Shown here: piece by piece, positions 33,460-56,738 of the stretch
Layout: every line of letters begins with the position of its first letter
How positions within the stretch are numbered: the stretch's first letter is position 1
Origin: Escherichia phage PhaxI
DNA length: 64,000 nucleotides
Sequence record: JN673056
Reading direction: 5' to 3' (one strand)
Notes under the pieces: generated by a model
What the model was told of the DNA's origin: nothing
The model's input: the letters and a program-made list of their open reading frames with translations, nothing else
The model's database searches: none
Translations under genes and position numbers: made by a program

Positions 33460-33696
33460 TTATTTGAAGCGATCCGGAAGGGTGTCGTGAACCTCGGCGC
33501 TCAGCACCAGGAACTTGCCGTCTTTAGTAGGGAAGCAGTAATCTTTCTTGATATGAAGCATGTGTTCAGCTGTAGCTGCTACGCAGTCGTCAGTCACATC
33601 AGTCTTCTCACCGACCCACATGCTGGTCTTGGTGTTCAAAGTTCCCTGGAAGATTGTCCCCGTGAGGGGGCTTGCGCCGATCTTTTTGATCCTCAT
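33460..33696 (-). CDS. hypothetical protein (78 aa)
   Basis: ORF followed by tandem hairpin repeat. Confidence 0.4.
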   Translation of the reverse strand: MRIKKIGASPLTGTIFQGTLNTKTSMWVGEKTDVTDDCVAATAEHMLHIKKDYCFPTKDGKFLVLSAEVHDTLPDRFK

Positions 33697-33704
33697 AATT
33701 GACC

Positions 33705-34145
33705 TCAGTTAATACGGAACAAATGTGGATAGCCACCAGGATGACCCTGGCCAGTAACGAACACGTCGAATTTTGAACCCTTGATCAGGCCAGGCAGATT
33801 GCCGGAGTCCAGCAATTCACGGATCTGATCCATCGCCAACATCCAGGTTTTGGCAGGTTCGGCTTCTGCTTCTCCTCGATTGAGTACGAGTTCACCTTCG
33901 GAATAGAACTTCCCGCTGTCCTTCATATAGTACAACGTGATATGAATGTACTGAGGGGACGGAACTAAACGCCAACCGTCGTCGATCAGATCTTGGCGAT
34001 CATTGTCCAGTGACTGATAATCAATATCACCAGATGGCAAACCATAGCTGCGCATGTAGCGGAACTTCTCAACACGATCTTTCACGTCGGAGATGAAGAA
34101 CTCCTTCGTAGCGGGGCTGATGAATATGTATTTTTCTTTTGACAT
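33705..34145 (-). CDS. hypothetical protein (146 aa)
   Basis: ORF in operon. Confidence 0.4.
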   Translation of the reverse strand: MSKEKYIFISPATKEFFISDVKDRVEKFRYMRSYGLPSGDIDYQSLDNDRQDLIDDGWRLVPSPQYIHITLYYMKDSGKFYSEGELVLNRGEAEAEPAKTWMLAMDQIRELLDSGNLPGLIKGSKFDVFVTGQGHPGGYPHLFRIN

Positions 34146-34205
34146 AATATAGATCTCTCAGTGATAGACAATATCATGATAGCACTGAGGGTAGATAAAG
34201 AAAAA

Positions 34206-34523
34206 CTACATGAAATCTTTTACCCATTCAGGGTCTTCCATAGGAACCCAATTTTCGTATTTGAACATTTTGTACATGTTATAGAACACTCGAATATTAT
34301 TCCCGTCGTTCATCCGGTTACAAAATCGTTCATGCCCCCAACCTTCATTCTTCCATAATTGATAGAATTGGTCAGCCATAGCCCAAACGTGTTGTAATGG
34401 TTTGGCTCTATTCGTTTGCCAAATGCTCAGAGAAGAGTTTCTTACTTTATTGGTGGCTGATACCTTTTCCCCAAATCCAGCGGGCTTCTTACGTCCTCTC
34501 AGGGAATCTGAAATGGAAGCCAA
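34206..34523 (-). CDS. hypothetical protein (105 aa)
   Basis: ORF in operon. Confidence 0.35.
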   Translation of the reverse strand: MASISDSLRGRKKPAGFGEKVSATNKVRNSSLSIWQTNRAKPLQHVWAMADQFYQLWKNEGWGHERFCNRMNDGNNIRVFYNMYKMFKYENWVPMEDPEWVKDFM

Positions 34524-34654
34524 CTCTTCGGGAGTTTTTGTTCTATTCTTATTGGTTGTATTGATTTTGTTTCTTAATTGTTGGTACGCTTCTGTTTGTT
34601 GGAAAGCCTTGACACCATCCCTTTGTGCTTCAGACCAAGTGGTTCCTGTTTTCC

Positions 34655-35053
34655 CTAATTTAATTCTTTCTCTTGTCTCCTTTGTCCTCTTTTTACCTTT
34701 GTTTGACGAAGAAATTTTCTGTCGTACCTTTTCAGAAGGAGTGCCGTATGTGCCCAGATGGACAGGCGTCCCATCTTTACGACAAAGGAAATTGATTCAA
34801 ACAACCCAGGAAACTTATGAGTCTTTGATATTAATAATCCTTCTACGCGTAGAGCATCTTCAGGAGTTTCACATACCATAACAATCTTGGTTTCAAAGAA
34901 TTCTAACCCATTTTCTTCTATCAAAGATTTAACTGGGAAGGAAGAAGTGAAATATGTTGCCCACAAATCATCAGGATGGCAATCTTTGGAATAACGACAT
35001 CCGTAATAGAAATGTCCTTGTTTAGATTTTATTCTGTACACATATGGGGTCAT
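34655..35053 (-). CDS. GIY-YIG-like nuclease domain protein (short, possible homing endonuclease remnant)
   Basis: N-terminus YVYRIKSKQGHFYYGCR fits the GIY-(x9-11)-YIG-x-R pattern, later conserved Glu (RVEGLL); only 132 aa, no DNA-binding domain. Confidence 0.35.
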   Translation of the reverse strand: MTPYVYRIKSKQGHFYYGCRYSKDCHPDDLWATYFTSSFPVKSLIEENGLEFFETKIVMVCETPEDALRVEGLLISKTHKFPGLFESISFVVKMGRLSIWAHTALLLKRYDRKFLRQTKVKRGQRRQEKELN

Positions 35054-35100
35054 AATGATCTCCTTTCTGAGTAATATAACCCCATATCTTAGAAAAGAAA

Positions 35101-35120
35101 ACCCCGCACATGGCGGGGTT
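35101..35120 (-). terminator. rho-independent terminator after major capsid gene (AAACCCCGCC-ATGT-GCGGGGTTTTCTTTTCT on minus strand)
   Basis: 7-bp GC stem and T-run immediately 3-prime of gp23 stop. Confidence 0.75.
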
Positions 35121-35150
35121 TGATTATAGCGTAAGTCTTTGTTTTAGCTA

Positions 35151-36473
35151 TTAAAACAGCGACTTTATCAGCCCCTTCCTGAAATACGGGTTGCTGTCTT
35201 GAGCAATACCGTCAGCAGTCACGTAAACCTGCGGGTCTTGGTTAGCCGGAATCTGAACGAACGGGTTAGCACAGATGCCGTAACGGGTTTTGAACGCCAT
35301 ACGCGGAGCGAAGGTGGTTTCACCCTGGGTGCGGTACATTTCCAGCGGCACATACGGCGCGAAGAAGATACCGGCATCCAGCGCAGTTGCGCCTTTGTAT
35401 GCCAGAGTGATATATTCTGCTACAGCATACGGGTCAACATAGACGCACATACCGTTGGACAGAACACCAGCGAAGGTCTGGCCAGTCGGGTCAACAGCCA
35501 GTTTAGTGTTTTCCTGCAGAACCGGAGCATAGTCCAGCATGCCAGACATCGCCAGAGCGGATGCCACGTTCGGAGAACACAGAACACGGTTGCCTTTACC
35601 ACGACGGGTGTCAACACCGATACCGTTCGCTTCAACTTCCAGCATGAAAGTCAGGAACTTCCATTTTTCCAGCGCCCAACGACCAGAGATGTCCTGCGCG
35701 ATATCAACAACACCGTTGGTGCCGAATTTTTTGAAGCGAACAGCACTGAAGTTCATGGTACGGATGAATTCACGGTTCATTTCCGCCTGAATTTCAGTTA
35801 CCATCACGTCAGACAGGATATTGTCCACGTCTTCGCCGTGAATTGCCATCATATCCTGACGCAGTTCATGGCTGTAATCAGCATACAGGCCGCGAGACTT
35901 GGCAGTAACGGTCGCTTTCTGAACGGTGATACCAACACGCGCCCACGGATTGGTGGTAGTACCCAGCAGTTCCGCGTCGGTTGACGGCATACCTTTACCG
36001 ATAGTGGTCACGACAGAGCCGGAACCTTCGATCTCAGCCTGACTGAAGCCTGACGGGTCGCCAGCCTGCACAGTGCCATCACCAGAGTAGCCGGAATCGG
36101 CTTCCTGCATGAACAGTTCTTTACGCGCCTGAGCGGTAGTAGAACCGTCGCCAACGCCTTGGCGAGCACGCAGTGCGAAGATCTGACCATCAGGACCAGA
36201 CAGCGGCTGAACGCCGAAGAAGTCCATCGCGATGTTGATCGGCGCCAGACGTTTTGCCATGTCGATCAGGACTGGCTGCCATTTACCGACAGTGCTGTTT
36301 ACAGAACCAGGAGCGTCGGATTCGCCCAGGTTTTTAGCGTTCCACTCGGCCTGGTTTTGCATCAGACGGATGGTTACGTTTTCGGCAGACAGAGGTTGGA
36401 TGGCTTCAGATTCTTTTTGGAGAACTGGCAGCCACTGTTTGCGCATTTCTTCGGTTACAAGTTTCTTAGTCAT
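35151..36473 (-). CDS. major capsid protein (T4 gp23-like)
   Basis: Blocks FGVQPLSGPDGQIFALRA, PWARVGITVQKATVTAKSRGLYADYSHELRQDMMAIHGED, YFAPYVPLEMY..FKTRYGICANPF, NPYFRKGL match remembered T4 gp23 (FDICGVQPMNSPTGQVFALRA, AKSRQLKAAYSIELAQDLRAVHGMD, YYAPYVALTPL..FKTRYGIGINPF, NAYFRRV). Confidence 0.9.
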   Translation of the reverse strand: MTKKLVTEEMRKQWLPVLQKESEAIQPLSAENVTIRLMQNQAEWNAKNLGESDAPGSVNSTVGKWQPVLIDMAKRLAPINIAMDFFGVQPLSGPDGQIFALRARQGVGDGSTTAQARKELFMQEADSGYSGDGTVQAGDPSGFSQAEIEGSGSVVTTIGKGMPSTDAELLGTTTNPWARVGITVQKATVTAKSRGLYADYSHELRQDMMAIHGEDVDNILSDVMVTEIQAEMNREFIRTMNFSAVRFKKFGTNGVVDIAQDISGRWALEKWKFLTFMLEVEANGIGVDTRRGKGNRVLCSPNVASALAMSGMLDYAPVLQENTKLAVDPTGQTFAGVLSNGMCVYVDPYAVAEYITLAYKGATALDAGIFFAPYVPLEMYRTQGETTFAPRMAFKTRYGICANPFVQIPANQDPQVYVTADGIAQDSNPYFRKGLIKSLF

Positions 36474-36512
36474 GATGCTCGTTCCTTACATTGATATTCA
36501 GTTAAGTTGAAA

Positions 36513-36520
36513 TTACTTAG
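36513..36520 (-). promoter_or_regulatory. late-promoter-like motif variant CTAAGTAA about 40 nt upstream of gp23
   Basis: Variant of the recurring CTAAATA motif. Confidence 0.25.
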
Positions 36521-36564
36521 TAGTTCAAAATCAAGCCCCCTTTCGAGGGCTGTGGCTGCTAAAA

Positions 36565-37404
36565 TTAGCCGTTCAGCAAGGCGCTGATCTGGCGACGGAC
36601 GGCTTCGTTGACTTCTTTGCCAACTTCGTCTTTGTCGTCGTCGTCTTTGTCGTCGCCAACATCATCACCTTCTTTTTTCTGTTTCTTACCTTCTTTGATG
36701 TCTTTTTCAGCCTTGTCACCATCCGGCTTACCCTTTTCATTGTCTTTACCGACTTTGTCAGAGAAGTCATCTTTACCTTCTACCAGATTACGGAAGGTGC
36801 GAACACGCGATTCGAATTCAGACTCGGTCTGGAATTCAATACCTTCCAGCAGGTTGACAACAGTGTCTTTCTTGGTGTCAACCATGCCTTCACAAATGCG
36901 ATCAATTACGTCGGTGCGCTGGCGTTTAGTCTCGCTTTCTTTGAGTTGGCTCAACTCTGTATTAGCCATATTGGCGCGTTGTTCTGCTTCAGCAAGGCGA
37001 CTGGTGAGGGCGGCAATCTGACCGTCTGGGTCAGTAGCGAAACTCACACCTGCTTCTTTCAGCACGTTGGAGAAACCAGTGAGGAAGCGTTCAGCAGCTT
37101 CAGTTTTGATCTGAGCGTCAATAGCTGGGGCATTTTTGTTAGCCCATTCTTCAACCACCGCGTTGAGGAATGAGTCAACTTTCCCAGCCAATTGCAGAAT
37201 GAAATTTTCTTTCAGGTCGGCGATTTCTTTCTGGTGAGATTCTACCAAATTCAGGCGCTCGACGTTGCCAGCTGCTTCGGTTTCTTGGATAGCTTTCAGA
37301 CGAGCCGCTTCAACTTTCGATTCCAGCAAATTGGATACTTTATCCAGGAAATCTGGGCTGATGCCGTTAACGCCTTCAAACAGATTTTGCAATTCAGGTT
37401 TCAT
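36565..37404 (-). CDS. prohead scaffold/core protein (T4 gp22-like)
   Basis: Position between gp21 and gp23; coiled-coil, highly acidic/lysine-rich C-terminal region (KDDDDKDEVGK). Confidence 0.6.
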   Translation of the reverse strand: MKPELQNLFEGVNGISPDFLDKVSNLLESKVEAARLKAIQETEAAGNVERLNLVESHQKEIADLKENFILQLAGKVDSFLNAVVEEWANKNAPAIDAQIKTEAAERFLTGFSNVLKEAGVSFATDPDGQIAALTSRLAEAEQRANMANTELSQLKESETKRQRTDVIDRICEGMVDTKKDTVVNLLEGIEFQTESEFESRVRTFRNLVEGKDDFSDKVGKDNEKGKPDGDKAEKDIKEGKKQKKEGDDVGDDKDDDDKDEVGKEVNEAVRRQISALLNG

Positions 37405-37431
37405 GATAGTTTCCTTCTGAACGATTTTTCA

Positions 37432-37439
37432 GTATTTAG
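37432..37439 (-). promoter_or_regulatory. late-promoter-like motif CTAAATAC, 28 nt upstream of gp22 start
   Basis: Minus-strand CTAAATAC; same motif recurs before gp18, gp14, gp67-like, the 1612-aa gene and a tailspike gene. Confidence 0.4.
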
Positions 37440-37450
37440 TGAGCTGAAAT

Positions 37451-38119
37451 TCAGCCCAGATGATTCAATGCTGCATCAAGGCGGCGCAGGAAATCGTCTT
37501 CAACCTGGATATTGGTTTTCACCAACTGGTCTACAACTTTCCCTTTAACATCACGAGGCATCCAAATACCCGAAGCCTCATCAAGCTGCCATTCAACAGA
37601 TTCACTCACAGCCTTAACATAACAAACTTGTCCAGAAGGACGGTCGACTGCATCAACAGCGGTGAGCATAAAGCCAGGTTGAACGTCATCATAACCGTTT
37701 ACTGACTTGGTCTCACCCAGGCCACGTGTAGACACGGCCAGATTGAAGTCTGCTTCGGCCAATGCACGTATGATTTGGCCTTTTGGTGTATTTAAAATTC
37801 GCGCCCGACCGATGGCATTAGTGCCTTCCCAGCGAAGGGATTCGGTTTTGAGTGCAGCTTCCACCAGATTAGGGAAAGGATAGTCAGGATGTGTGACTTC
37901 ACCGATTGCGCGACGATCTTGGATATACTCTTTGTCGTATGCTTCGACAGCAGGAATACCCACTTTCTGCAGATCATAGTTACGCCCGTTACGGTTGACT
38001 TGGTTACACATCACAAACGGACCTTCGATGAACATGGCCTTCCCACCAGTTGAGGTTGTGGCCTCACCGATTTGAAGATCCTTCCCTATCGCTGTGATCT
38101 CACGCAACAGTTTCATCAT
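37451..38119 (-). CDS. prohead protease (T4 gp21-like)
   Basis: Synteny (between gp68-like and gp22) and size 222 aa; not checked at motif level. Confidence 0.5.
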   Translation of the reverse strand: MMKLLREITAIGKDLQIGEATTSTGGKAMFIEGPFVMCNQVNRNGRNYDLQKVGIPAVEAYDKEYIQDRRAIGEVTHPDYPFPNLVEAALKTESLRWEGTNAIGRARILNTPKGQIIRALAEADFNLAVSTRGLGETKSVNGYDDVQPGFMLTAVDAVDRPSGQVCYVKAVSESVEWQLDEASGIWMPRDVKGKVVDQLVKTNIQVEDDFLRRLDAALNHLG

Positions 38120-38126
38120 AAACTCC

Positions 38127-38444
38127 TTACTTGTTCTTACTCAGTCCCATCATTTTGCGGAACTTCATAGCCTTTTTCTTGCGGCGCTCGATTTTACGTT
38201 GATAGCCCATTCCCATACGCTTTTTAGAGCGGAGGGCTTTGCGGTTGCCGATCTTGCGAACACGACGTTCGCTGGCGTCCATAACTTCACAACGTGAACC
38301 ATCAGCCGACAATTTGAACCCAGGGGCACATTTCAAGCGGCGGCGGCGTTTACCACGAGCGTTCACTTTATCGATGACTCGCTGCTCGTCCATACGAGAG
38401 GCCAGGAAATCAGCGAACGTGGCGATCTCTGTGATTTCCATCAT
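38127..38444 (-). CDS. basic prohead core/internal protein (gp68 position)
   Basis: Highly basic (KRRRRLK, RKKKAMKFRK); occupies T4 gene 68 position. Confidence 0.4.
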   Translation of the reverse strand: MMEITEIATFADFLASRMDEQRVIDKVNARGKRRRRLKCAPGFKLSADGSRCEVMDASERRVRKIGNRKALRSKKRMGMGYQRKIERRKKKAMKFRKMMGLSKNK

Positions 38445-38452
38445 GCATCTCC

Positions 38453-38623
38453 TTACTGGCCGTTGTTGTTTGAATTCATATCGGCTGCGATAGAATCCAG
38501 AACATATGCTGTGCCTTGGTTTAATAGTTCTTGACTACGTGCATCAAGTTCCATGTTGCATTCTGCAACAGCAGTTTCAGTGTCACCGTCAATTACTGCA
38601 CGAACGATATCAATTGCGCTCAT
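38453..38623 (-). CDS. small acidic protein (56 aa), gp67 position
   Basis: Not in ORF track (under 60 aa); ATG 38621-38623 with SD GGAGAT; MSAIDIVRAVIDGDTETAVAECNMELDARSQELLNQG... Confidence 0.4.
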   Translation of the reverse strand: MSAIDIVRAVIDGDTETAVAECNMELDARSQELLNQGTAYVLDSIAADMNSNNNGQ

Positions 38624-38650
38624 GATTTTGATCTCCGAATTAATTTTCTA

Positions 38651-38657
38651 TATTTAG
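38651..38657 (-). promoter_or_regulatory. late-promoter-like motif CTAAATA upstream of gp67-like gene
   Basis: Minus-strand AACTAAATATAG about 28 nt upstream of ATG. Confidence 0.35.
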
Positions 38658-38664
38658 TTGAACT

Positions 38665-40347
38665 TTAAATACTATCGTCTGTTGAACCGGAGAATGGGAT
38701 AGTCTCAGGTTTAAACTTCAACGGACTAACATCTGAACCGCTATAATTGCCAGTTTCATCTGCTTGAACCTTCGGATAGAGACCTTTCTTCTTCTCTTCC
38801 GCGATCTTAGCCTGTTGTTCTTTAACTTCTTCGTCTGACATACGCAGAACATTCCGCATGACATAATCGATGGAGAATATAGAACCAACAAAAGGCTCAA
38901 CAGTGTTCAGAGAAGCCAGGCGATCATTTAATATGGCGTTTTCTTGTTGCTCACGAATATAGCTATCAGAAGTGAATTCAAACTTAATAAACGGCTTGAT
39001 TTTTTCATTCCAATCTTTTTCGTCAGTCACGCCTTTCAAAATTAATTGGCGACGTAAAAACTCCATAAAGAAATGGGAGTAACGACGACGTAACCCAGCA
39101 CAGAACTTGCTGAAACGCAGCTCTTCCTGTGTAATCTCCGCGAGGTTGGAACCCCCAATGTTAATAGATCCTTCCTCTTGGAGGCGGCTCTTAGGGATCA
39201 TTAGAGCATCATAGAGTTTTTCACGGAAATAGTTCACGTGATCCATTTCGCCCAATTGATTCCCACCCCCAACAGTCGCAATCTCTGTAGCATTCTGACC
39301 TTCGCGGCGCGGCAACCAATAATCCTCTGCAATACCCATAAGATGGGCATTACCTGTTATCTTACCAGTGGTGCGGTCATATGCGTTGCGGTTTTTGAAT
39401 TTACCCATCATCATGGTCATGTATTCTTCAGCAGATTTCTTACCGAGAGTACCGACGTCAAGATAGAATGCGCGTTTCTCAGGGGCGCGAGTGATGGCAT
39501 AAATTACTGTTGCGTCTTCAGTCGTAACCAAGTTGTTCAACGGGCGGATTGCAGGATTTAAAAGCCCTGGGACAATACCGTTAGCCAATGGTTCTTCACC
39601 ACTATCGATATAAACGATACTTTCGTCATCAAACACGAGTTCTTGTTGTGAAGGTTGGAAGTTTTGAGAAGTACCTGATTGACCAGTGAATTGGTTCCGA
39701 TTATAATTCGGATTGTAATAGTATTTCAGCGTTACAGATTCGATCGCTTCTATACCACCTTCACGCATTGCCTTTTCAACGATGTACACAGGACGAATAC
39801 AACGAGAATCCAGCATGACCAATTTCTTGATCCCGCCCTTCTTATTCGTTGGGTCAACAATCACATGATACGCTTGTCGACCATCTACATACCATTTCCG
39901 AATCTTTTGATACGCCGTATTTTCAAAATCCATCAAATGAATCACTTCTTTGAAACATTCGGTGATAGATTCTTTGACTGATTCAGAAATACCATCAACT
40001 TTGTCAAGATTGACTGTCACCGGAGTTTCGTCTTCCTCACATGTGACAACGTCATTAACAATGATGTCCACAGCTTTGCGGATTTCTGGCTGCTGGGCCA
40101 TGGACTGATATTCTTCCACAACTGTTTTAACGCTGAGAAGTTCACTCTCAACGCCAACATAGTTGTAGGTGTTTGCACCGCCCTGAAGGATTATAGAACC
40201 GTCTTGAGCATCGTCCAGAGCAACAACTGTCGCCTTGGTGAGCAACAATTCATCTTGTTTTTGGGCTAACTTATCGGTGTCGACTTTGGCATTGACTAAA
40301 CCGCCGCCACCAAACAAACCGAAGAACCCCATGCCGTATCCAGCCAT
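38665..40347 (-). CDS. portal vertex protein (T4 gp20-like)
   Basis: VIYAITRAPEKRAFYLDVG..KFKNRNAYDRTTGKITGNAHLMGIAEDYWLPRREGQNATE matches remembered T4 gp20 ([50 protein letters not shown]). Confidence 0.85.
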   Translation of the reverse strand: MAGYGMGFFGLFGGGGLVNAKVDTDKLAQKQDELLLTKATVVALDDAQDGSIILQGGANTYNYVGVESELLSVKTVVEEYQSMAQQPEIRKAVDIIVNDVVTCEEDETPVTVNLDKVDGISESVKESITECFKEVIHLMDFENTAYQKIRKWYVDGRQAYHVIVDPTNKKGGIKKLVMLDSRCIRPVYIVEKAMREGGIEAIESVTLKYYYNPNYNRNQFTGQSGTSQNFQPSQQELVFDDESIVYIDSGEEPLANGIVPGLLNPAIRPLNNLVTTEDATVIYAITRAPEKRAFYLDVGTLGKKSAEEYMTMMMGKFKNRNAYDRTTGKITGNAHLMGIAEDYWLPRREGQNATEIATVGGGNQLGEMDHVNYFREKLYDALMIPKSRLQEEGSINIGGSNLAEITQEELRFSKFCAGLRRRYSHFFMEFLRRQLILKGVTDEKDWNEKIKPFIKFEFTSDSYIREQQENAILNDRLASLNTVEPFVGSIFSIDYVMRNVLRMSDEEVKEQQAKIAEEKKKGLYPKVQADETGNYSGSDVSPLKFKPETIPFSGSTDDSI

Positions 40348-40414
40348 GATCTAAGTCCTCAACGTTTTCTTGTAATTAGTGAGGGGGAATAACATTCCCC
40401 CAGCACCGAGGACA

Positions 40415-40948
40415 TTACAAAGACTTGTCAGAAACGGCTTGGAAATAACGCAAGTCGACAGTGAACTGTGTGTAAGAGTCCATTGCCGACATATCGAGTT
40501 CCAGTTGGCCGAGGTTTTGAGGCCAGCCGCCCTGTAAAGTCCATGTCTTAGTCACGTTGTCATTCGCGTCCAGAAGTTCCATGATGATATCACGGAAATA
40601 ATCATCTGGATTCGCGCTGGCGCGGTTGTTTTCACTACCGTTGATGAATTGCTGCCACACTTCAAAAGCATTGTATGGAGCGTTGTTCACCACGTTAATG
40701 AACGTCACAGGAAGCGCTTCGAAACGACGATCCCCTGGGAACGGAAGTTCACGTCCACCCCAGGGCACCAGAATTTCGCCCAGCTGACCTGTTGGGGTGT
40801 TGGTGGTTACAGCCAGCAAGGACACGTCACGAATTGTGTCGGAACCAGCAACAAAAGAAGGAAAGTTTACAGTCACACGCCAGCGGTGTTGGCGTTGTAC
40901 GCCGCCCCCTCGTGACATGGCTGCGCGAAACTCATTGACTGTCGCCAT
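40415..40948 (-). CDS. tail tube protein (T4 gp19-like)
   Basis: Synteny between gp18 and gp20; C-terminal LQGGWPQNLGQLELD resembles T4 gp19 IKGLWPTNVGELQLDW. Confidence 0.65.
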   Translation of the reverse strand: MATVNEFRAAMSRGGGVQRQHRWRVTVNFPSFVAGSDTIRDVSLLAVTTNTPTGQLGEILVPWGGRELPFPGDRRFEALPVTFINVVNNAPYNAFEVWQQFINGSENNRASANPDDYFRDIIMELLDANDNVTKTWTLQGGWPQNLGQLELDMSAMDSYTQFTVDLRYFQAVSDKSL

Positions 40949-40978
40949 TTTTATATCTCCAAATAAGAGTACACAATT

Positions 40979-41437
40979 CTAATTAGTCGTCAATCTTTTA
41001 ATCTTCATGGAAGAAAAATCAAATCCGTGGTCAACATTGCTTAAAACGGGTTCTATTTCACACAATTCCCAACGGGGATCTATGAGAGAAACAAGACCAA
41101 TGTGTTCACCTGTGGATGTCAATTTTGCTGCAGTTTTACCCAGCATATGACTTCCATCATTACCGCCTTTATTCATGTTGTAACCCATCTCATAAGAATT
41201 ATATTGAGCGATGAGTTGCTTCTCTAATTCCCATTTATGGACTTCATCGGTCTGAGCAATTACAACGAAAGTAAATCCAGATGTTCCATACTTACGCATG
41301 GCATCATACAATTCACTTTGGACTCCATGATGAAAAGCATTCGCAAAATGCTGATCATATCTTCGTTGTGGGTTATTGGTTACACCGATGTAGACCTTTC
41401 CATTAGTTATCGTTTCAATTTTGTATGCGTATATCAT
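40979..41437 (-). CDS. GIY-YIG homing endonuclease
   Basis: MIYAYKIETITNGKVYIGVTNNPQRRYDQHF is a canonical GIY-YIG motif with the conserved Arg; inserted between gp19 and gp18. Confidence 0.7.
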   Translation of the reverse strand: MIYAYKIETITNGKVYIGVTNNPQRRYDQHFANAFHHGVQSELYDAMRKYGTSGFTFVVIAQTDEVHKWELEKQLIAQYNSYEMGYNMNKGGNDGSHMLGKTAAKLTSTGEHIGLVSLIDPRWELCEIEPVLSNVDHGFDFSSMKIKRLTTN

Positions 41438-41504
41438 TTCAAATTCACCTCTATTTTATTTAGTGTTGAACAATTTCGGGGTATTATGCTCTTGGAGGTG
41501 TTAT

Positions 41505-42293
41505 ATGATCGGTCATATCTACATGTTAACCGTCGGTAAAAAGAAGTATATCGGACAAACTAGAAACGGCGTTGAGTATCGAGTAAATGAACATTTGGGT
41601 GAAGCAAGAAGAGGGAATAAAACTATCCTCTACAACTATATCCGAAAGTATGGAATTACCAGCCAAGAAATATTGCTAGAATGCCATGTCGATGACCTAA
41701 ACTCTAACGAAATTGAACTCATAAAATTGCATAAGACTCATATCTCTGAAGGTGGGCTGAATATCAGCCGTGGCGGTCAGATAGACATATCTGGTATGGC
41801 CGCAGCATATGATATAGAAAGCAGGGAATTCATCGGAATGAAACCAGTTAATGATGCTGGTTGGAATGTTTTGTTTGTGGCAAAACAATACGGTTTAGTA
41901 CATAAAGAAGAAAGTAAAACAAAAATGTCCCAATCCCAAGCGGTCGTGTGGACAGAAGAAAAGAAAGAATTGCAATCCCGGCGAATTACAAAGGCATACG
42001 AGAATCCAAAATGTAAAGAAAATCTTCGTATCGCTATGAACAAAGTGCGTATGAATCCTGAATTTCAAGAGAAAATAAATCGATCTCTCGGGAGATGGTT
42101 TACACTTCTTTCACCAGCTGGTGAAGAATATGAAATCAAGAATCTAAACAAATTTTGTCAAGAACAATGTTTGTGTATAGAATCTTTCAACATGGCATTA
42201 GCTGGAAGGATGCAGAATCCCATCCCTAAACCTTACAGGAAATCTTCATTGAAGAGAACAAATACCACAGGATGGCATATCAGTAGGAAATAA
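41505..42293 (+). CDS. GIY-YIG homing endonuclease (Seg-like), plus-strand
   Basis: ATG 41505 with SD GGAGGTG; HIYMLTVGKKKYIGQTRNGVEYRVNEH canonical GIY-YIG; divergent from adjacent minus-strand GIY-YIG gene. Confidence 0.7.
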   Translation: MIGHIYMLTVGKKKYIGQTRNGVEYRVNEHLGEARRGNKTILYNYIRKYGITSQEILLECHVDDLNSNEIELIKLHKTHISEGGLNISRGGQIDISGMAAAYDIESREFIGMKPVNDAGWNVLFVAKQYGLVHKEESKTKMSQSQAVVWTEEKKELQSRRITKAYENPKCKENLRIAMNKVRMNPEFQEKINRSLGRWFTLLSPAGEEYEIKNLNKFCQEQCLCIESFNMALAGRMQNPIPKPYRKSSLKRTNTTGWHISRK

Positions 42294-42316
42294 AAACCCC
42301 GCCGAAGCGGGGTTGT
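42293..42316. terminator. bidirectional terminator (CCCCGC-CGAA-GCGGGG) shared by plus-strand HEG and minus-strand gp18
   Basis: A-run before and T-rich run after stem on both strands. Confidence 0.65.
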
Positions 42317-42320
42317 TGTC

Positions 42321-44216
42321 TTAGGATGCAGCAACGATGCCGCCGCCTGATTCGATCTCGGAGAATTCCATATCTGGTCGAACTGCAGCAAAATCCAAAT
42401 ATACCCAATTAATGCTGTACTCAGGCTTCAACCAAATGCCTGCAACCATGGTGTTGGCTGCGATAACATCAGCAGTGTTGTTATCTTCGTCACACTTGAC
42501 TTTACCATCGTAGATCGCACCCATATTTGCCAGTTGGCGAATATAAGGACGAACAGCGTTGCTGAACAGGCTGCGAGTGAACGCATCATTGTTCTCACCA
42601 AGGTAATATTTGGCGATTGCAGCGATGTTCTGTTCTGCCATAATGAACAAGCCACGAACATTGATACGATCGAAAGCAGACGGACGAGTCAGGCCAGTTT
42701 TGTCACCATACAACACGATACCTTCATTGGAGAAGGTTACGATGCTGTTAATCTGGTTGCGGTACAACACGGCACGTTCATCGGAAGACGCAGACCACGC
42801 CATTCGATTGTAGTTGTTGTATTTGCCACGGTTGTGGAACGCAGGAGATTTGTAGATACCCGCGATTTCAATGCTTCGCGCCCAAACACCTGCGGTGCCA
42901 CCACAAGCCGGAATCCAACGCATTTTGTCGTTGTACTTGTCGTACACATATGCCCAGTTATCATCCATGAAGAAATAAGAAGAGTCGCGAACAAGGCTTT
43001 CACGCCAAGCAACGACATCATCCATTTCACGACCACGGTTGCCAACAACCGTATCACGGAGCGGGGATACGAAAGATACCGTATCTTTTCGCTCAGTAGA
43101 TAAGTCGATCAATGCTTGTTGCTCAATCAGTTCTTCACAGTACGCAAATACTGGCTTCGCATCATATGCTTCAGCATTGTTCAAGACTTGGATAGCTGCC
43201 ACGCGGTTGATGTTATAATCGTCTACGCCGCCTTCTAATTCAACAACACCTGCGGACAGAGCGGTAGCGAAGGTGTACACCCAATTTGATGTATCATTGA
43301 TGACATCTTTGAAGTACGCATTCGCGCCATCGGACTTTTTGGAACCCTGTGTGTTCTGCATGAGTTCGTATTTTTCGATAATAGAACCAGATGCGCCAAC
43401 AGTGGTAATCACGGCGGTTGCAGTCAGCCCCTTATCATCTGGAACAATAGCAGTAACTGTCTGGGGACCAATAGCTTTATGGGTCACGATGACAGTGTTG
43501 GACTTCACGACAACAGAAGAATAAACACTTGTCAGGGAAGTTAGTGCTGTACCGATTTTGGTTGCCAAATCGGCTGGAGTATCAGTATCCAGATATGCGA
43601 TATCTTCACCTGCCACACTGATGGTGCCAGCAGCAGTAGCCGTACCAGAAACGGAGATACGGTCAACCTGACCGACCGCGCCAGCAGAGTCGGTAATGCG
43701 ACCAACTTTGTCTACGACAACTACATGGAATTCACCAGACTGAGGTGCGTATGCAAAGTTATTACGGAATTCCCAAGTTGAGAATCCAGCAGCATCACAA
43801 ACATTGATAGCAATATCATTACCCAGGGAACCTGGATAACGACCAGTCCAAGTGATGGACGCCGAAGGACTTGCTGTTTCAAAATCCAGTTTGTTTTTGA
43901 TCGCAATCGCTGTCTGACCTTTGGTAACAGAGTTCTTGGCCAGAGGACCAACAACACGGGTCACCCATGCCATAGAGCTGTAAGACAAAAAGTCCGCGAT
44001 TACGAGAAAATCGGTCGCAGTACTGTCGTTGGGTTTGAAGAATTTCTTCACCAAACCTGTCTCACCACCAGTCACCAGCACTGGAAGTTCAACTTCACCC
44101 CATTGAAATTTGCCGACGGTCGCGCCCTGAACAACAACGGACGGGGACGTCTGAAGCGTGGCATCACGCTCAGTCCACTGAACGGACGGCGCAACGCTGA
44201 AGCTTTGAGTTGCCAT
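42321..44216 (-). CDS. tail sheath protein (T4 gp18-like)
   Basis: N-terminus MATQSF..GKFQWGEVELP matches T4 gp18 GKFQWGPAFQ; start set to ATG 44214-44216 with SD AAGGAA (track starts at TTG 44249). Confidence 0.85.
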   Translation of the reverse strand: MATQSFSVAPSVQWTERDATLQTSPSVVVQGATVGKFQWGEVELPVLVTGGETGLVKKFFKPNDSTATDFLVIADFLSYSSMAWVTRVVGPLAKNSVTKGQTAIAIKNKLDFETASPSASITWTGRYPGSLGNDIAINVCDAAGFSTWEFRNNFAYAPQSGEFHVVVVDKVGRITDSAGAVGQVDRISVSGTATAAGTISVAGEDIAYLDTDTPADLATKIGTALTSLTSVYSSVVVKSNTVIVTHKAIGPQTVTAIVPDDKGLTATAVITTVGASGSIIEKYELMQNTQGSKKSDGANAYFKDVINDTSNWVYTFATALSAGVVELEGGVDDYNINRVAAIQVLNNAEAYDAKPVFAYCEELIEQQALIDLSTERKDTVSFVSPLRDTVVGNRGREMDDVVAWRESLVRDSSYFFMDDNWAYVYDKYNDKMRWIPACGGTAGVWARSIEIAGIYKSPAFHNRGKYNNYNRMAWSASSDERAVLYRNQINSIVTFSNEGIVLYGDKTGLTRPSAFDRINVRGLFIMAEQNIAAIAKYYLGENNDAFTRSLFSNAVRPYIRQLANMGAIYDGKVKCDEDNNTADVIAANTMVAGIWLKPEYSINWVYLDFAAVRPDMEFSEIESGGGIVAAS

Positions 44217-44258
44217 AATATCATTCCTTCTCGGTAGAGTTTCGCTCAATTTGAAAGA

Positions 44259-44265
44259 TATTTAG
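44259..44265 (-). promoter_or_regulatory. late-promoter-like motif CTAAATA between terminase stop and gp18 start
   Basis: Minus-strand CACTAAATATC about 40 nt upstream of gp18 ATG. Confidence 0.4.
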
Positions 44266-44268
44266 TGA

Positions 44269-46479
44269 TCAATTCTTAAACCACTCATCCATGGTCATCC
44301 CTGACATTTCGTTGAAAACTTGAATACCCCCGAAACCAGGCAAATGCTCAGTTTCGGATGGGGTGTCTCCAACGACTAAACCGCCAAATGGGAATACCTG
44401 CTGGGATTCAGTTGAAGACATTCGGTTTCTCATGTCCTGAGAAATACTTGTAGATGTCAAGTCACTGAACCATTCTTGTTTTACCGCCCATGAATATAAG
44501 ACCAACGGCATGACACAGTCATCGTGACAACCGTCATCGGCTTCATACCGAGCGCCTTTGAACACAAATGTACTGAGTTCATCTATCGTGTCCTGGTCTT
44601 CTATCACCAACATTTCTTTCTCAATGAGCGCTTTCAGGTTAGCACAACCGATAGATCGGACTTTTCTGTTGGTATTGATACCAGGTTCCGGTTTACGTCC
44701 ACCAATCCGTTTCCCCGTCCCTTTGTTATCTGTTGATGTGAATATGATTTCTGGATATTCTATCTCTTGATAAAGAATTGTAATAACCTGACCGCCGACG
44801 TCGTTGTTTGTTTCAACAAGGACAGGACATTCCCCGTATTCGGTGCACATATCAGCTATCGTGTATGCATACATCATAGGAGGTATCGTATTATTCCTGT
44901 ACTTGGCTGCTATGACATGCGGATATTCAGTTATATCCAGAATTGTTAAGACGGAATAATCTCCTTCCACCCCCTTCCCAGTGTCCGCAATCCCAAAGTA
45001 GAGACGTTGTGGGTCGTATTCCTTATAAATCTTGGTGAATTCATTAGGTTCCCGATACAACTTGGACGTCATTTTATCTAAGCATTTGGCCGGAATCAAT
45101 GAACCCACGGAACCACGGAACTTAATGCCAAATTCTTGATCGAAACGAGCATCCCCCAGACGGGCACGTTGTTTGGTTTCCCAATCTGGATCTTTGGTAT
45201 ATGCCGGAACCTTATACCATGGGACTTCAGTTAGGTGGAAGTCGTTGTATGGTGGATGGCGTGGATCTGCTTTGGTGACAATATCATAGAACAACCCTCG
45301 CTGGCCTTTCGGAGTACTTGTCAAAATACAGCGTGATGTATCGGCAGATGCAATGGCTGGGAAAGTTGATTCCCAAAATTCAAAGTCGTTTTCGATAAAC
45401 GCGACTTCGTCAACATACAGGAGCGATCGACGACCACGGATGGAGTTCCGAAGACTCGTGGCATAAGCGTATATCTTAGAACCATTCTCAAACTCTATCA
45501 GGGTAGAACCAAACTTCTCACAACCCTGCTGAAGGAAGAATGGAAGGTCTTGGTATGCCTTTCTGATACGGTCAAGAATTTCTATCGCTTGTTTCTCTTT
45601 GTTTGCCAGTACTGCGATTTCCTTATCAGAATGGAACATCGCGTACCAAAGAAGAAACGCCGCCACCACGGTCGTGTTATGACTGAGAAAGCCATTCGTG
45701 TAATAACGTTGATCACTAGATTTGACCTGCAGATCGTACATATGGTGATATTCACCAGTCTGCCAAATCTCACGGATTTCTTCTGGACCTTCGGTCGTCA
45801 TGATGTATGACCCAGCATTCAGGTCTTTGGCAAATATCTCCTTCATGTCCGGAGTGAAGAACATATGTTCATCGGCCACGTTAATTCGCCTTCCGGTAAC
45901 GGTGACAATAACGAATTCCGCATATTTCTTCGTCTTATGCGCTGCGATAACCGGAACCCAGCCACTATCGGATTGTACAAAGTAACGTTTGCCGAAGCGG
46001 CTGTCCACGAACTTGTCATGGTTGCCAATGGTATTCAGCGGCACAGCGTGGTTGACGTCCTCGAAGCGGCTGTGAAGCTCCCCTATAGTCAGGAGCAACT
46101 CCTCTTGGCTGAGAGTATCGTAAACTGTGACAAGCGTGTCGCCTTTTACACATTTTCCGGACTGACGAGCCTGGACGACCGCATTAAATCGATAGTCCTG
46201 AAAGTCGTGGAACAACTGCTTCTGATAATCATGCATATCGAAAAGGATAAAGCCCTTATCGATCGTGGTTATCTTGTAATAGTTGGCGGCGAAGTAGTGT
46301 GCATCCATAGAACATTCAACGAATTCGTCTTCTTGTTCATCTGTCAGCATTAACTCGACTCGAGGAGCACGCACAGAAAGTTTGCGCATGAACGTTTGGT
46401 CCATACGCAATTTTACATCGTCTATTTTGAACCCCGTTTTAATTGGGGCATATTCTATATCACGCTTCTGATACGCCAT
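44269..46479 (-). CDS. terminase large subunit (T4 gp17-like) interrupted by a mini-intein
   Basis: C-terminal nuclease/ATPase blocks (LLYVDEVAFIENDFEFW, ILTSTPKGQRGLFYDI) match remembered T4 gp17; Walker A ARQSGK is separated from its TTVVAAFL continuation by a 159-aa insert. Confidence 0.9.
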   Translation of the reverse strand: MAYQKRDIEYAPIKTGFKIDDVKLRMDQTFMRKLSVRAPRVELMLTDEQEDEFVECSMDAHYFAANYYKITTIDKGFILFDMHDYQKQLFHDFQDYRFNAVVQARQSGKCVKGDTLVTVYDTLSQEELLLTIGELHSRFEDVNHAVPLNTIGNHDKFVDSRFGKRYFVQSDSGWVPVIAAHKTKKYAEFVIVTVTGRRINVADEHMFFTPDMKEIFAKDLNAGSYIMTTEGPEEIREIWQTGEYHHMYDLQVKSSDQRYYTNGFLSHNTTVVAAFLLWYAMFHSDKEIAVLANKEKQAIEILDRIRKAYQDLPFFLQQGCEKFGSTLIEFENGSKIYAYATSLRNSIRGRRSLLYVDEVAFIENDFEFWESTFPAIASADTSRCILTSTPKGQRGLFYDIVTKADPRHPPYNDFHLTEVPWYKVPAYTKDPDWETKQRARLGDARFDQEFGIKFRGSVGSLIPAKCLDKMTSKLYREPNEFTKIYKEYDPQRLYFGIADTGKGVEGDYSVLTILDITEYPHVIAAKYRNNTIPPMMYAYTIADMCTEYGECPVLVETNNDVGGQVITILYQEIEYPEIIFTSTDNKGTGKRIGGRKPEPGINTNRKVRSIGCANLKALIEKEMLVIEDQDTIDELSTFVFKGARYEADDGCHDDCVMPLVLYSWAVKQEWFSDLTSTSISQDMRNRMSSTESQQVFPFGGLVVGDTPSETEHLPGFGGIQVFNEMSGMTMDEWFKN
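45676..46152 (-). mobile_element. mini-intein (Hint domain only, 159 aa) inserted in the terminase Walker A P-loop
   Basis: Insert begins Cys (CVKGDTLV, block A), contains VYDLQV...NGFLSHN ending in His-Asn, and is followed by Thr (+1 nucleophile) that completes QSGK-T of the P-loop; no homing endonuclease domain. Confidence 0.75.
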
Positions 46480-47140
46480 CGTCTTCTTCCTTCACATCAA
46501 CTGTTTCACCATCAATGATTTCATCTTCTGGTTGTTGTGCGGCCTTTGCTTGTGCTCTTTCTTCAGCGCGACGGCGGGCATCTTCAATCGTCTTCAATAA
46601 ATCGCGAGAAGATCGCGCCTTTTTCCCAACCGATACTGTTGTTGTTCCGTCTGGTGAAGTTGTAACATCCACTGTCGTGTCATCAACAGGTGGTTCTTTA
46701 TCACCTGTTACTGCCTTGATGGTTTTCTGGTTTTCCATCAAGTCTTTATTCAGACCGCGCATGAGTTCACCCAATTCACGGAAAACAGAAAATGCTCGCG
46801 GAGCTTCTGTGGATGCAGCCAATTTAGCGGCTTGTCCCATCATGAACATTGTGGCTTCTTGCATAGCATATGTTGTGTCGCGTATCCGTTTGTAATCCGT
46901 TGTAGCATCAGTGTCCGCAAACTCAGGTACTTTGGATTCCTTGGAAGCAATATCCTCCAATGAAGGCGGTTCAGGAATCGGCTGATACCCTTCCGGACGT
47001 TCACCAAACCATTCACCTGTATTTTCATCGAAGTCAATACCTGGACGAGGGGCGACAGCCTCCATCGCCTCCTTCCCGACTTCGTCTCGGGCAGTCACTG
47101 CATCAAGCGTGGCGAGTAACCTTTCTGACATATTGCTCAT
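46460..47140 (-). CDS. terminase small subunit (gp16 position)
   Basis: Directly upstream of and overlapping terminase large subunit; acidic C-terminus; start set to ATG 47138-47140 with SD GGAGG. Confidence 0.6.
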   Translation of the reverse strand: MSNMSERLLATLDAVTARDEVGKEAMEAVAPRPGIDFDENTGEWFGERPEGYQPIPEPPSLEDIASKESKVPEFADTDATTDYKRIRDTTYAMQEATMFMMGQAAKLAASTEAPRAFSVFRELGELMRGLNKDLMENQKTIKAVTGDKEPPVDDTTVDVTTSPDGTTTVSVGKKARSSRDLLKTIEDARRRAEERAQAKAAQQPEDEIIDGETVDVKEEDDGVSEA

Positions 47141-47142
47141 GA

Positions 47143-47841
47143 TCAATCCTCCGGATGATGTATGCCGTCTTTATCAACTCGGAACCACTCAGGAAGTTCC
47201 GACCATGGCATGTTCAAATCATTAGACATTTCAATAATTATCTCTTTGATGACGTTTGGGTCCCCACCGCCCGAACCATCATCAACCCAATAATCTTCTC
47301 CATAGATGTGACCATGTAATTGAAAATTGAATGAACAATCTATGTGTGGTGATTCTGTTGCGTCTCCTTCCCAGTTGTCAGAAATCGTGTGATTTACCAA
47401 CATTATCTTCACGTTCTGATCTTGAGATAGCGTATCCGTGTCTTTTATCTGACAATCAATAGAAGGAGTGAACACAGAATAAATTTGTTCTAATACTTGC
47501 AACATTTCGACCAATTTTTTAGTTCTGATATTGTATTCAAAATCTATAATGATCGGAATGCGTTGTTTGGACCGTGCCGTAGCGGTCGATATTTGGTTGT
47601 GGTATGACTTCGTCACCTGTTTATTGATTTCGAACTGACCAAAGGACATTGTTGCAAATGGCAGCATATTGGCTGGCACGTTCCTGTTGAGGTCATTACG
47701 GCGGCCAATGGCCATATGCAGCGGGATTTCCATCAAGCCACGTTCGGTTTTGACTTTTAAATCTGACATGATAGCGTTGAACACATGTATGTATTTCAAC
47801 AATGATTCATGATAGAAATATTTTTCAAATGGTCTGGCCAT
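47143..47841 (-). CDS. tail sheath stabiliser/completion protein (T4 gp15-like)
   Basis: N-terminus YFYHESLLKYIHVFNAIMSDLKVK resembles T4 gp15 YFYNSSFRRYATLMGDLFSNIQIK; synteny. Confidence 0.65.
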   Translation of the reverse strand: MARPFEKYFYHESLLKYIHVFNAIMSDLKVKTERGLMEIPLHMAIGRRNDLNRNVPANMLPFATMSFGQFEINKQVTKSYHNQISTATARSKQRIPIIIDFEYNIRTKKLVEMLQVLEQIYSVFTPSIDCQIKDTDTLSQDQNVKIMLVNHTISDNWEGDATESPHIDCSFNFQLHGHIYGEDYWVDDGSGGGDPNVIKEIIIEMSNDLNMPWSELPEWFRVDKDGIHHPED

Positions 47842-47843
47842 GA

Positions 47844-48485
47844 TTATTCCCCGAAGTCTATCTTCATTTTATTGGGCGAAAGATCTTTCTCTATTTCGTC
47901 CGCAAATTGGTTATCCGTTTGCAGGCTGGCGTCTTTGTACACACCGTCTCCTTCCAGATCCTGCAATCGTTTATCGATATCGTCTATTTCAGATACACCT
48001 GTATCGAAATCTTCGTTACCGTATTGGAACAACGTACATGGTAGGGAATATGTGTACCATTTCCCAAATTGCATGAATTCTTCATCGTTATTCGGGTTAT
48101 TCACTTTAAATATTTTGTTAGCCATAGGCAGATATATCAAATCACCTTCTTGAGGCATTTGTTCAAGGCCTGGACCATTACCAATAACTTCTGAAAAACG
48201 ACGACGAGCAATAGTGAATGTCACTTCATCTTGTAATTGGATACCGCCGAACTTTTCCCACATCTGTGTGTTGAAGCCTTGATAATCCTGCATATAAACT
48301 TCGATGTCAAACGCTTGGTCGAATTTGTGTTCGGCCTCGTTTAAAATTGGGTATTTTTCAACAATAGAACGTGGGATATACTTGACGTCAATCCCACGCA
48401 ATTGTATCATCTCGACCACCAAGTCATCAATTAATTTTTGAGTACCTTGGTGTGAAGTGTAATTAAAGTATCGAGAAGTAGCCAT
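47844..48485 (-). CDS. neck protein (gp14 position)
   Basis: Synteny only (upstream of gp15). Confidence 0.4.
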   Translation of the reverse strand: MATSRYFNYTSHQGTQKLIDDLVVEMIQLRGIDVKYIPRSIVEKYPILNEAEHKFDQAFDIEVYMQDYQGFNTQMWEKFGGIQLQDEVTFTIARRRFSEVIGNGPGLEQMPQEGDLIYLPMANKIFKVNNPNNDEEFMQFGKWYTYSLPCTLFQYGNEDFDTGVSEIDDIDKRLQDLEGDGVYKDASLQTDNQFADEIEKDLSPNKMKIDFGE

Positions 48486-48509
48486 AATATTTTCCTCAAG
48501 ATTTAAATA

Positions 48510-48516
48510 TATTTAG
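48510..48516 (-). promoter_or_regulatory. late-promoter-like motif CTAAATA upstream of gp14-position gene
   Basis: Minus-strand AACTAAATATAT about 25 nt upstream of ATG 48485. Confidence 0.35.
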
Positions 48517-48543
48517 TTGAATTTGTTTTTAAGGTGAATCAAT

Positions 48544-49254
48544 ATGATCGTCCTGACAGAAGGAATTGCTTCTAAAAGAATCAAATCATATGCTTCTTCT
48601 AGAGGTGGAATATTTCACGGATTTGTCGGTGGTAAATTTGTCACCAACCAAACTAAGTGCATTTTGTCTTGCGAATTTGGTCATGAATGGAACTCAGCAA
48701 CTTATGCGAATTTGATAAATAAAGGAAGTTGGTGTCCTTCGTGTCGTGGAAACAAGAAGATCTCAAATGAAGAAGCTAAAATCAGGATATCGGAGTACGC
48801 CGTAAGCAACGGTGGTAAATTCATAAATTTCATTGGCGGGAAGTACAAAGACAACGTGACAATTTGTGTCATGGAATGTTCTGAAACGCACAGGTGGGAA
48901 TCCAGGTACGGTAATTTAGTCAACAGCCGAAGTTGGTGTCCGTATTGCGCAGAATCGGGTTACAATTATTCTAAGGAAGGTTTCTTATATATTCTAGTCA
49001 ACGACGAAGGTTGTATGAAAGTGGGAATAACCAACTCGCCTAAGAAACGTATAAATTGTTTGAGAAGCACCACCCCGTTTTACTTCAACGTTCTAGAAAT
49101 ATTTAATTCAACTGACGGATTATTTGTTTCCAGGTTGGAAAGAATTGCCCATAGAATGTGTAAGAGCGCGGGGTATAAGGATTTTGACGGTGCTACCGAA
49201 TGGTTTGTATACGATGGATCAGTCGTAGATTTTATCAGAAATATTTTGAAGTAG
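48544..49254 (+). CDS. T5orf172/GIY-YIG-superfamily nuclease domain protein with two N-terminal zinc-ribbon repeats, plus-strand
   Basis: C-terminal GFLYILVNDEGCMKVGITNSPKKR...EWF fits the T5orf172 pattern; N-terminus has two about 70-aa repeats each with C..C..H.W...SWCP.C; SD AAGGTG. Confidence 0.55.
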   Translation: MIVLTEGIASKRIKSYASSRGGIFHGFVGGKFVTNQTKCILSCEFGHEWNSATYANLINKGSWCPSCRGNKKISNEEAKIRISEYAVSNGGKFINFIGGKYKDNVTICVMECSETHRWESRYGNLVNSRSWCPYCAESGYNYSKEGFLYILVNDEGCMKVGITNSPKKRINCLRSTTPFYFNVLEIFNSTDGLFVSRLERIAHRMCKSAGYKDFDGATEWFVYDGSVVDFIRNILK

Positions 49255-55919: not shown

Positions 55920-56543
55920 TTAATCAGTATACGCCATCAAGAACATAATAAGCTCATCATAGCGTACTCCGTACCTTACTCCTGCTGGTTTAACTATTAC
56001 AACTTCTTCTAACGTTTCTGGATTAATGATTATTTCAGAAGACGCTTCCCATTCGTCCTTGCACCAGAATGCGTAATCCTCTGGTTTAAGTCCGTGCTTT
56101 GTCAGGATAGAACCAACAGTTTGCGCACCAACGCCGAAGTGGACTCGTGCAGACTCTTCTCCCTTAATTTCTATAGCGTCAGTAAACTTATAGCGAATAA
56201 TATTATTGCGAATTTCATTAGCCGCTTCCCTTTCCGCACTCTCGTTTGTTGCTGGGGTTTTTACCTTCAGTGTTTCATCGGAGGTGCTTATTGTTCCCGT
56301 TGCAGCATAGACAACAGACCATCTATGTGATGTATATCCTAATACGGTCGTATTGTCTGTATCAGGCATAAATCCATTGTATCCACCAATCTTAAGGTCG
56401 CCATTTGGGTTTCCGGATGACGTTTTACCATCATAACTTCTCAGAGTTACTCCTTTCGTTCCGGCAGTGGTATCTACCAAGATACCAGCGTTGGTAGAAC
56501 CTAGAAGCTGAATTCCACTATTATCATTACGCAAATCCTGCAC
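55920..56543 (-). CDS. hypothetical protein (207 aa), possible C-terminal fragment or accessory of tailspike
   Basis: GTG start in track; frame is open about 50 codons further upstream; lies directly downstream of a short tailspike ORF. Confidence 0.35.
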   Translation of the reverse strand: MQDLRNDNSGIQLLGSTNAGILVDTTAGTKGVTLRSYDGKTSSGNPNGDLKIGGYNGFMPDTDNTTVLGYTSHRWSVVYAATGTISTSDETLKVKTPATNESAEREAANEIRNNIIRYKFTDAIEIKGEESARVHFGVGAQTVGSILTKHGLKPEDYAFWCKDEWEASSEIIINPETLEEVVIVKPAGVRYGVRYDELIMFLMAYTD

Positions 56544-56738
56544 AGGTGCTTCAAGTACAGTTGCTGTAAATTTCCATTTTGTATCGGAATAAAATTCAGC
56601 AGGTGAAGTATCATCACTTTGTATGATTACCGCTTGTTTGCCAGATTCTCTTCTACGACACCAGCAATATTTTTCTGGGTTGGATCCCAGTTACTAGAGA
56701 CAAGCACCCCATCAAATTCTACTAATGATTCAAAAGGT

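Follow-up and report, generated by a model that had tools for sequence, protein, structure and literature searches.

Our analysis indicates that the 132-aa open reading frame (ORF) lying just behind the major capsid gene of Escherichia phage PhaxI is the 5' part of a Seg-like GIY-YIG homing endonuclease gene of the free-standing kind, which is common in ViI-like phages directly after the major capsid gene and which has here probably been disrupted by two real insertions. The locus is a frameshift-disrupted, or miscalled, copy of a known and already annotated gene family. The DNA analyzed, called the window below, is the whole 64,000-nucleotide stretch of this phage (sequence record JN673056), and a megablast search of positions 33700-35160 against the GenBank phages identified it as belonging to a Kuttervirus (ViI-like Ackermannviridae). 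An earlier note on this DNA had placed the ORF after gp23 and the gp23 terminator; the ORF list returns the ORF with the same start and minus-strand coordinates, and its position relative to gp23 and the terminator is as described (Table 1). The terminator is annotated as such in the relatives Marshall and AKM_ssTn, and an Rfam search over it produced no more than chance matches to leader families, all of them sub-threshold. An antisense ORF at 34402..34881 (+) and the 105-aa ORF 34206..34523 (-) were considered as separate genes and rejected as by-products of the endonuclease gene, for which a tblastn search found no paralogue elsewhere in the window.

Table 1. Position of the disrupted endonuclease gene, its parts and its neighbours in the window.
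Feature	Position	Strand	Description
132-aa ORF	34655..35053	-	starts MTPYVYRIKSKQGHFYYGCR; residues 1-82 GIY-YIG catalytic core, residues 83-132 out-of-frame tail
Whole disrupted homing endonuclease gene	34206..35053	-	848 bp in the window against 846 bp (281 codons) for the intact gene in relatives
Insertion 1	34805..34807	-	GGG on the gene strand against GG in all relatives; alignment column 255
Insertion 2	34789..34791	-	TTT on the gene strand against TT in all relatives; alignment column 271
Displaced 3' part of the gene	34206..34790	-	linker, NUMOD3-type repeats and helical HTH-like C-terminal DNA-binding domain; 194 codons plus stop, still open
Predicted RNA hairpin	35042..35087	-	13-bp stem, AUAUGGGGUUAUA / UAUGACCCCAUAU
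Shine-Dalgarno AAGGAG	35060..35065	-	6 nt 5' of the ATG at 35053; read from the sequence
Intrinsic terminator of the major capsid gene	35099..35121	-	9-bp stem with 6 GC pairs, U-tract
Exchangeable cassette (hairpin and endonuclease gene)	34160..35093	-	bounded by sequence common to the endonuclease-less Vi01
gp23-type major capsid gene, upstream neighbour	35151..36473	-	Pfam Gp23, E 2.3e-121; 99.3% identity to the SJ2 capsid protein
Conserved 146-aa protein of unknown function, downstream neighbour	33705..34145	-	phrog_4181, E 5.7e-83; 99.3% identity to SJ2 ORF174

The gp23 3' flank, which the earlier note had proposed to compare among related phages, carries an intact endonuclease coding sequence at the same site in the closest relatives. 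The DNA of positions 33700-35160 is 97.6-98.2% identical over 1.46 kb to that of Marshall, Maynard, EP75, SJ2, SJ3, AKM_ssTn and KFSST3, and these seven phages as well as KE31 have an uninterrupted 846-bp orthologue encoding 281 aa. The coding sequence is annotated in Marshall (Marshall_60), EP75 (ORF146), KE31, AKM_ssTn, SJ2 (ORF173) and KFSST3, and the Marshall product, gp60 (AGY47577.1), is described as 'GIY-YIG homing endonuclease; nuclease, NUMOD3 DNA binding domain'. All these phages share one gene, located between the gp23 terminator and the 146-aa ORF, and within each frame segment its protein is 96-99% identical to that of the window; the orthologues are intact, whereas the window copy is split over three frames by two 1-nt insertions.

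The GIY-YIG-like motif reported from the first reading of the sequence was confirmed by profile comparison, in which PHROG 314 ('homing endonuclease') matched the fragment with an E value of 2.4e-15 and the intact protein with one of 6e-40. The 132-aa ORF by itself stays under the Pfam gathering thresholds, with 18.3 bits for PF19835 SegE_GIY-YIG (threshold 25) and 14.6 bits for PF01541 GIY-YIG (threshold 22.6); the evidence from the family as a whole and from the structure is nonetheless clear. Among 16 homologues taken from a search of 5.8 billion proteins, 15 matched PF19835 at E <= 0.01 (best 6.2e-7), two have precomputed PF19835 matches and ten matched NUMOD3. Residues Y6, Y16, Y17, G18, R20 and E71 are invariant in the 16 homologues, and N86, which is part of an LN motif, is found in at least 90% of them. 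The two motifs that give the superfamily its name have the form YVY (residues 4-6) and YYG (residues 16-18), both models contain strands E4-10 and E15-20, and the alpha/beta fold is that of a GIY-YIG domain. R20 is invariant but stands two residues past G18, against a canonical spacing of about eight and unlike the spacing of R27 after the YIG motif in I-TevI. E71, at the position of the metal-binding Glu, is kept in the 132-aa ORF and was aligned by hhalign, at low overall probability, with the Glu of the canonical GIY-YIG ORF at 40979-41437; the conserved Asn that lies C-terminal to the Glu helix (N86) is not encoded in the frame of the 132-aa ORF. The intact 281-aa protein begins with a GIY-YIG nuclease core, continues with a linker that bears NUMOD3-type repeats and ends in a helical DNA-binding domain; it joins a nuclease domain to sequence-tolerant DNA-binding modules (NUMOD3 / HTH). 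An hmmsearch of the family profile against PDB sequences gave no relevant match, the best being to unrelated proteins at E 0.18, an hhalign comparison of the family with the I-TevI sequence aligned only a NUMOD3-like stretch with a probability of 2.5%, and NCBIfam gave no usable match.

The absence of a recognizable DNA-binding domain, as recorded in the earlier note, is correct for the ORF as translated but not for the gene, the DNA-binding half of which lies downstream in another frame. The N-terminus of the ORF is 96% identical over 83 aa to the intact orthologues, and a three-frame translation shows that a second minus-strand frame opens where the homology in the frame of the ORF ends, running for 194 codons to the stop at 34206. 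This downstream frame reads ...INFLCRKDGTPVHLGTYGTPSEKVRQKISSSNKGKKRTKETRERIKLGKTG...WVPMEDPEWVKDFM, resembling NUMOD3-type repeats followed by the C-terminal domain, and its 194 codons (34209..34790) correspond to residues 88-281 of the intact protein with 97-99% identity. In a tblastn search the intact protein was recovered piecewise from three frames, with residues 1-83 from frame -1, 80-88 from frame -2 and 88-281 from frame -3. We then have, from a four-way DNA alignment of the window with Marshall, EP75 and KE31 (mean column identity 99%), the cause of the split: the sequences differ in length only because the window has two extra bases, GG having become GGG and TT having become TTT at sites 16 nt apart. 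The first insertion shifts the frame after codon 82 and the second adds another +1 shift, with the result that the intact KFPGCLNQFLCRKDG becomes KFPGLFESISFVVKMG in the window frame (...KFPGLFESISF... against ...KFPGCLNQFLC... in the intact protein) and Asn86, which falls between the insertions, is lost. Residues 83-132 result from reading the linker/NUMOD3 region out of frame, and the model shows them as disordered; judged from the reading frames, the 3' end of the ORF is a frameshift artefact. The ORF is made up of codons 1-82 followed by 50 out-of-frame codons. The seemingly missing DNA-binding domain is present but displaced, and the window copy of the gene has no uninterrupted reading frame. 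Besides the insertions, the gene contains three window-specific substitutions, two of them synonymous and one changing A182 to D. The inactivation would be recent, since no other damage is seen in the 194 codons downstream.

Both changes lengthen a homopolymer by one base, and a change of homopolymer length is the classic signature of a sequencing error. The phage might then possess the intact 281-aa gene, the two extra bases being homopolymer miscalls, and the public record is consistent with such an error. Neither insertion was found in the 21 GenBank records covering the site, all of which span 2 nt less than the window; a 31-mer spanning both insertions was not found in IMG/VR, the JGI metagenomes or the GTDB genomes, and its intact version is present in IMG/VR. 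Nor is there any record of the exact 132-aa product, and, insertions apart, the gene is essentially undamaged, which also suits an error. The quality of the remaining sequence argues against it. When 45 + 26 SJ2 proteins were mapped to the window, covering about 58 kb, each was found in a single frame and no other gene was split, so that about 70 other genes are free of frame breaks; and in the conserved block 33692-48517 (14.8 kb) no uncompensated indel other than the two insertions has a length that is not a multiple of three. Two random errors separated by 16 nt within a single dispensable gene of 848 bp are improbable, roughly (848/58000)^2 by our own estimate, while true frameshifts should last only where a gene can be dispensed with, a description that suits a homing endonuclease gene particularly well. 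We regard a pair of miscalls as rather unlikely and a real, recent inactivation of the endonuclease gene as the likely explanation, in which case the insertions would be biological.

Between the two possibilities raised at first, a decayed homing endonuclease or a minimal nuclease, the data agree with the former in that the gene is a disrupted homing endonuclease gene, and the out-of-frame tail speaks against the latter. It is very improbable that the 132-aa protein is a functional product in the form of a stand-alone minimal GIY-YIG nuclease, given its nonsense tail, which is modelled as disordered, the loss of the conserved Asn86, the occurrence of the allele in this genome alone among all records examined, and the reliance of GIY-YIG homing enzymes such as I-TevI on a separate DNA-binding domain for binding of the substrate. 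Any 132-aa product is almost certainly inactive as a site-specific enzyme. Even smaller is the chance that recoding restores the full length or that a C-terminal domain made from an internal TTG at 34523 works together with the N-terminal fragment: the downstream frame is indeed fully open and the 105-aa ORF beginning at this TTG was listed, but the native sequence would take two separate +1 events, a single -1 slip is possible only past an in-frame TGA between the insertions and even then residues 83-90, Asn86 among them, would be replaced, the sequence there contains no X XXY YYZ slippery heptamer, no obvious Shine-Dalgarno was seen before the TTG, and all relatives have a plain single-frame gene.

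The disrupted endonuclease gene belongs to a family with the distribution of a mobile element. In four genera, Kuttervirus, Limestonevirus (RC-2014), Nezavisimistyvirus (Bue1) and Miltonvirus (3M), a member of the family follows gp23 at a distance of about 100 nt; the Kuttervirus alleles of FrontPhageNews and SM5 are in the same place, as is the endonuclease in all four of the metagenomic contigs looked up. Vi01 and CBA120 have no endonuclease and carry small ORFs in its place. A blastn comparison of the window with Vi01 shows that homology ends at 35094 and resumes at 34159, Vi01 having instead 495 bp with two small ORFs, and the site thus displays a presence/absence polymorphism at one fixed intergenic position in relatives that are collinear elsewhere. 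KE31 looks like a CBA120-type flank or allele to which the cassette has been added. As a separate observation, the region downstream of gp23 is a hot spot of cassette exchange, with two small ORFs in Vi01, four in CBA120, and in KE31 the endonuclease together with three small ORFs that have no relation to the Vi01 ones.

A second allele, encoding 215 aa and present in Kuttervirus phages of the S117/S118/GG32 type, occupies exactly the same slot relative to Vi01, and the cassette boundaries are the same for both alleles. It is without about 66 residues of the NUMOD3 repeat region, its best local protein alignment with the 281-aa allele is only about 45% identical, and its N-terminal nuclease domain is much more divergent than its 3' end. 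The last 63 or so codons together with the downstream flank are about 98% identical in DNA (34206-34394 in the window, 3006-3194 in the S117 allele). Because the 3' ends are about 98% identical in DNA and the overall protein identity is about 45%, we infer an intragenic recombination breakpoint, with a common DNA-binding module and a swapped nuclease/linker. F-LimVI of Dickeya phage LIMEstone1 has an N-terminal nuclease domain that is 52.6% identical over residues 3-116, the F-LimVI-type Limestonevirus genes combining a related nuclease domain with a different C-terminus, and in Dickeya phage Ds5CZ an F-LimVI-type match, confined to the N-terminal domain (residues 3-116), is situated about 16 kb from the capsid gene. 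Modular domain shuffling has been described for phage homing endonuclease genes (PMC10448857), and the pattern of the F-LimVI and S117-type genes is of that kind; presence/absence polymorphism together with domain shuffling has likewise been reported (PMC2988022, PMC3296691, PMC10448857). Our literature search found no experimental paper on cleavage or homing by any member of this endonuclease family.

A further parallel is the Seg family of free-standing GIY-YIG homing endonucleases of T4. Both the T4 Seg genes and the window family are free-standing intergenic GIY-YIG genes with NUMOD3-type modules that lie beside an essential conserved gene, and the catalytic domain of the SegE type (PF19835) is the best Pfam family for the window gene family. 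T4 segD is located directly after gene 23, between genes 23 and 24 (PMC2988022); it is antisense to both, whereas the window gene runs in the same direction as gp23. The sequences are not closely related, the Pfam matches being mostly sub-threshold, and no T4 record was among the tblastn matches listed. I-TevI, the endonuclease of the T4 td intron (catalytic domain 1LN0), is 18% identical in sequence and differs in being intron-encoded, the window gene being free-standing.

The start of the gene is enclosed in a predicted RNA hairpin that contains the Shine-Dalgarno and pairs the AUG and codons 2-4 (dG -20.6 kcal/mol, z -4.15, none of 200 shuffles as good). A ribosome-binding site (RBS) is annotated in Marshall at the place equivalent to the AAGGAG of the window. 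A hairpin is also predicted upstream of the start in every other allele examined, often with a different sequence, and in most of them it includes the Shine-Dalgarno, the AUG or both; covariation is weak, consisting of one AU to GC exchange that involves a synonymous Tyr codon, and its score was reached by 21 of 500 shuffles. RBS-sequestering hairpins are documented for I-TevI, I-TevII, I-TevIII, segB and mobE (PMC2988022), and the hairpin of the window may similarly gate translation of the endonuclease by hiding the RBS and the AUG. Motif searches of the 64-kb window did not identify a promoter for the gene. The T4 late motif TATAAATA occurs once in the 64 kb, which is no enrichment, and T4-type late promoters are not evident at the locus. 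A box resembling GTTATA(A/T)(A/T) is found about 20-30 nt 5' of the ATG in most alleles (35073-35080 in the window), in the 5' arm or the loop of the hairpin. Its enrichment in the window is marginal (15 found, 8.6 expected, with 15 reached by 7 of 100 shuffles), and it might be a phage promoter element.

Other endonuclease-like genes are found elsewhere in the window. Two GIY-YIG ORFs stand back to back between the tail tube gene gp19 and the tail sheath gene gp18, one at 40979-41437 (-) with 152 aa and a Pfam GIY-YIG match of E 1.9e-11, the other at 41505-42293 (+) with 262 aa and a weak GIY-YIG match (E 0.0066); both are present in SJ2, with 95% and 100% identity. A 236-aa ORF at 48544-49254 (+), flanked by the neck gene gp14 and the gene that follows it, has CapR-homology repeats and a MUG113/T5orf172 domain of the GIY-YIG superfamily (E 3e-13, 3e-9 and 1.3e-6). 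Because SJ2 has only a 62-bp spacer at this place, the ORF is a further endonuclease-like insertion polymorphism, the fourth in the structural module. The window also differs from SJ2 after the 1612-aa VrlC-like gene, where ORFs of 207 and 474 aa (55920-56543 and 56739-58163, both on the minus strand) were only partly matched, with 83% identity over the first 163 aa of SJ2 ORF153; the region 55920-58163 is probably a variable tailspike module.

By analogy with the Seg enzymes of T4, the intact enzyme would make a cut near the gp23 3' flank in a co-infecting relative whose allele has no endonuclease, and the endonuclease gene would then be copied in by recombinational repair, its translation being gated by the hairpin that hides the RBS and the AUG. 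In this genome, the two 1-nt homopolymer insertions 16 nt apart would have broken the frame after codon 82, leaving as product a putative nuclease core deprived of Asn86 and of every DNA-binding module and extended by a 50-residue nonsense tail, and such an inactivation may represent an early step in the decay of a selfish gene. A broader and tentative proposal, which we hold with some doubt, is that the gp23 3' flank is a family-wide homing site of the Ackermannviridae, at which GIY-YIG alleles with a common C-terminal module and differing nuclease/linker modules compete, each gated by an RBS/AUG-sequestering hairpin, and that the window has caught the first step of degeneration. In a more exotic variant, the truncated nuclease core may be expressed and somehow active, for example by interfering with an incoming intact enzyme.

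For annotation, the consequence is that positions 34206-35053 should be described as one disrupted homing endonuclease gene instead of being listed as two items, a small novel nuclease and a hypothetical ORF. Turnover of endonuclease genes is a pattern known from T4-like phages and others (PMC2988022, PMC3296691, PMC10448857), and the present locus is one more case of it beside an essential structural gene in the ViI-like phages.
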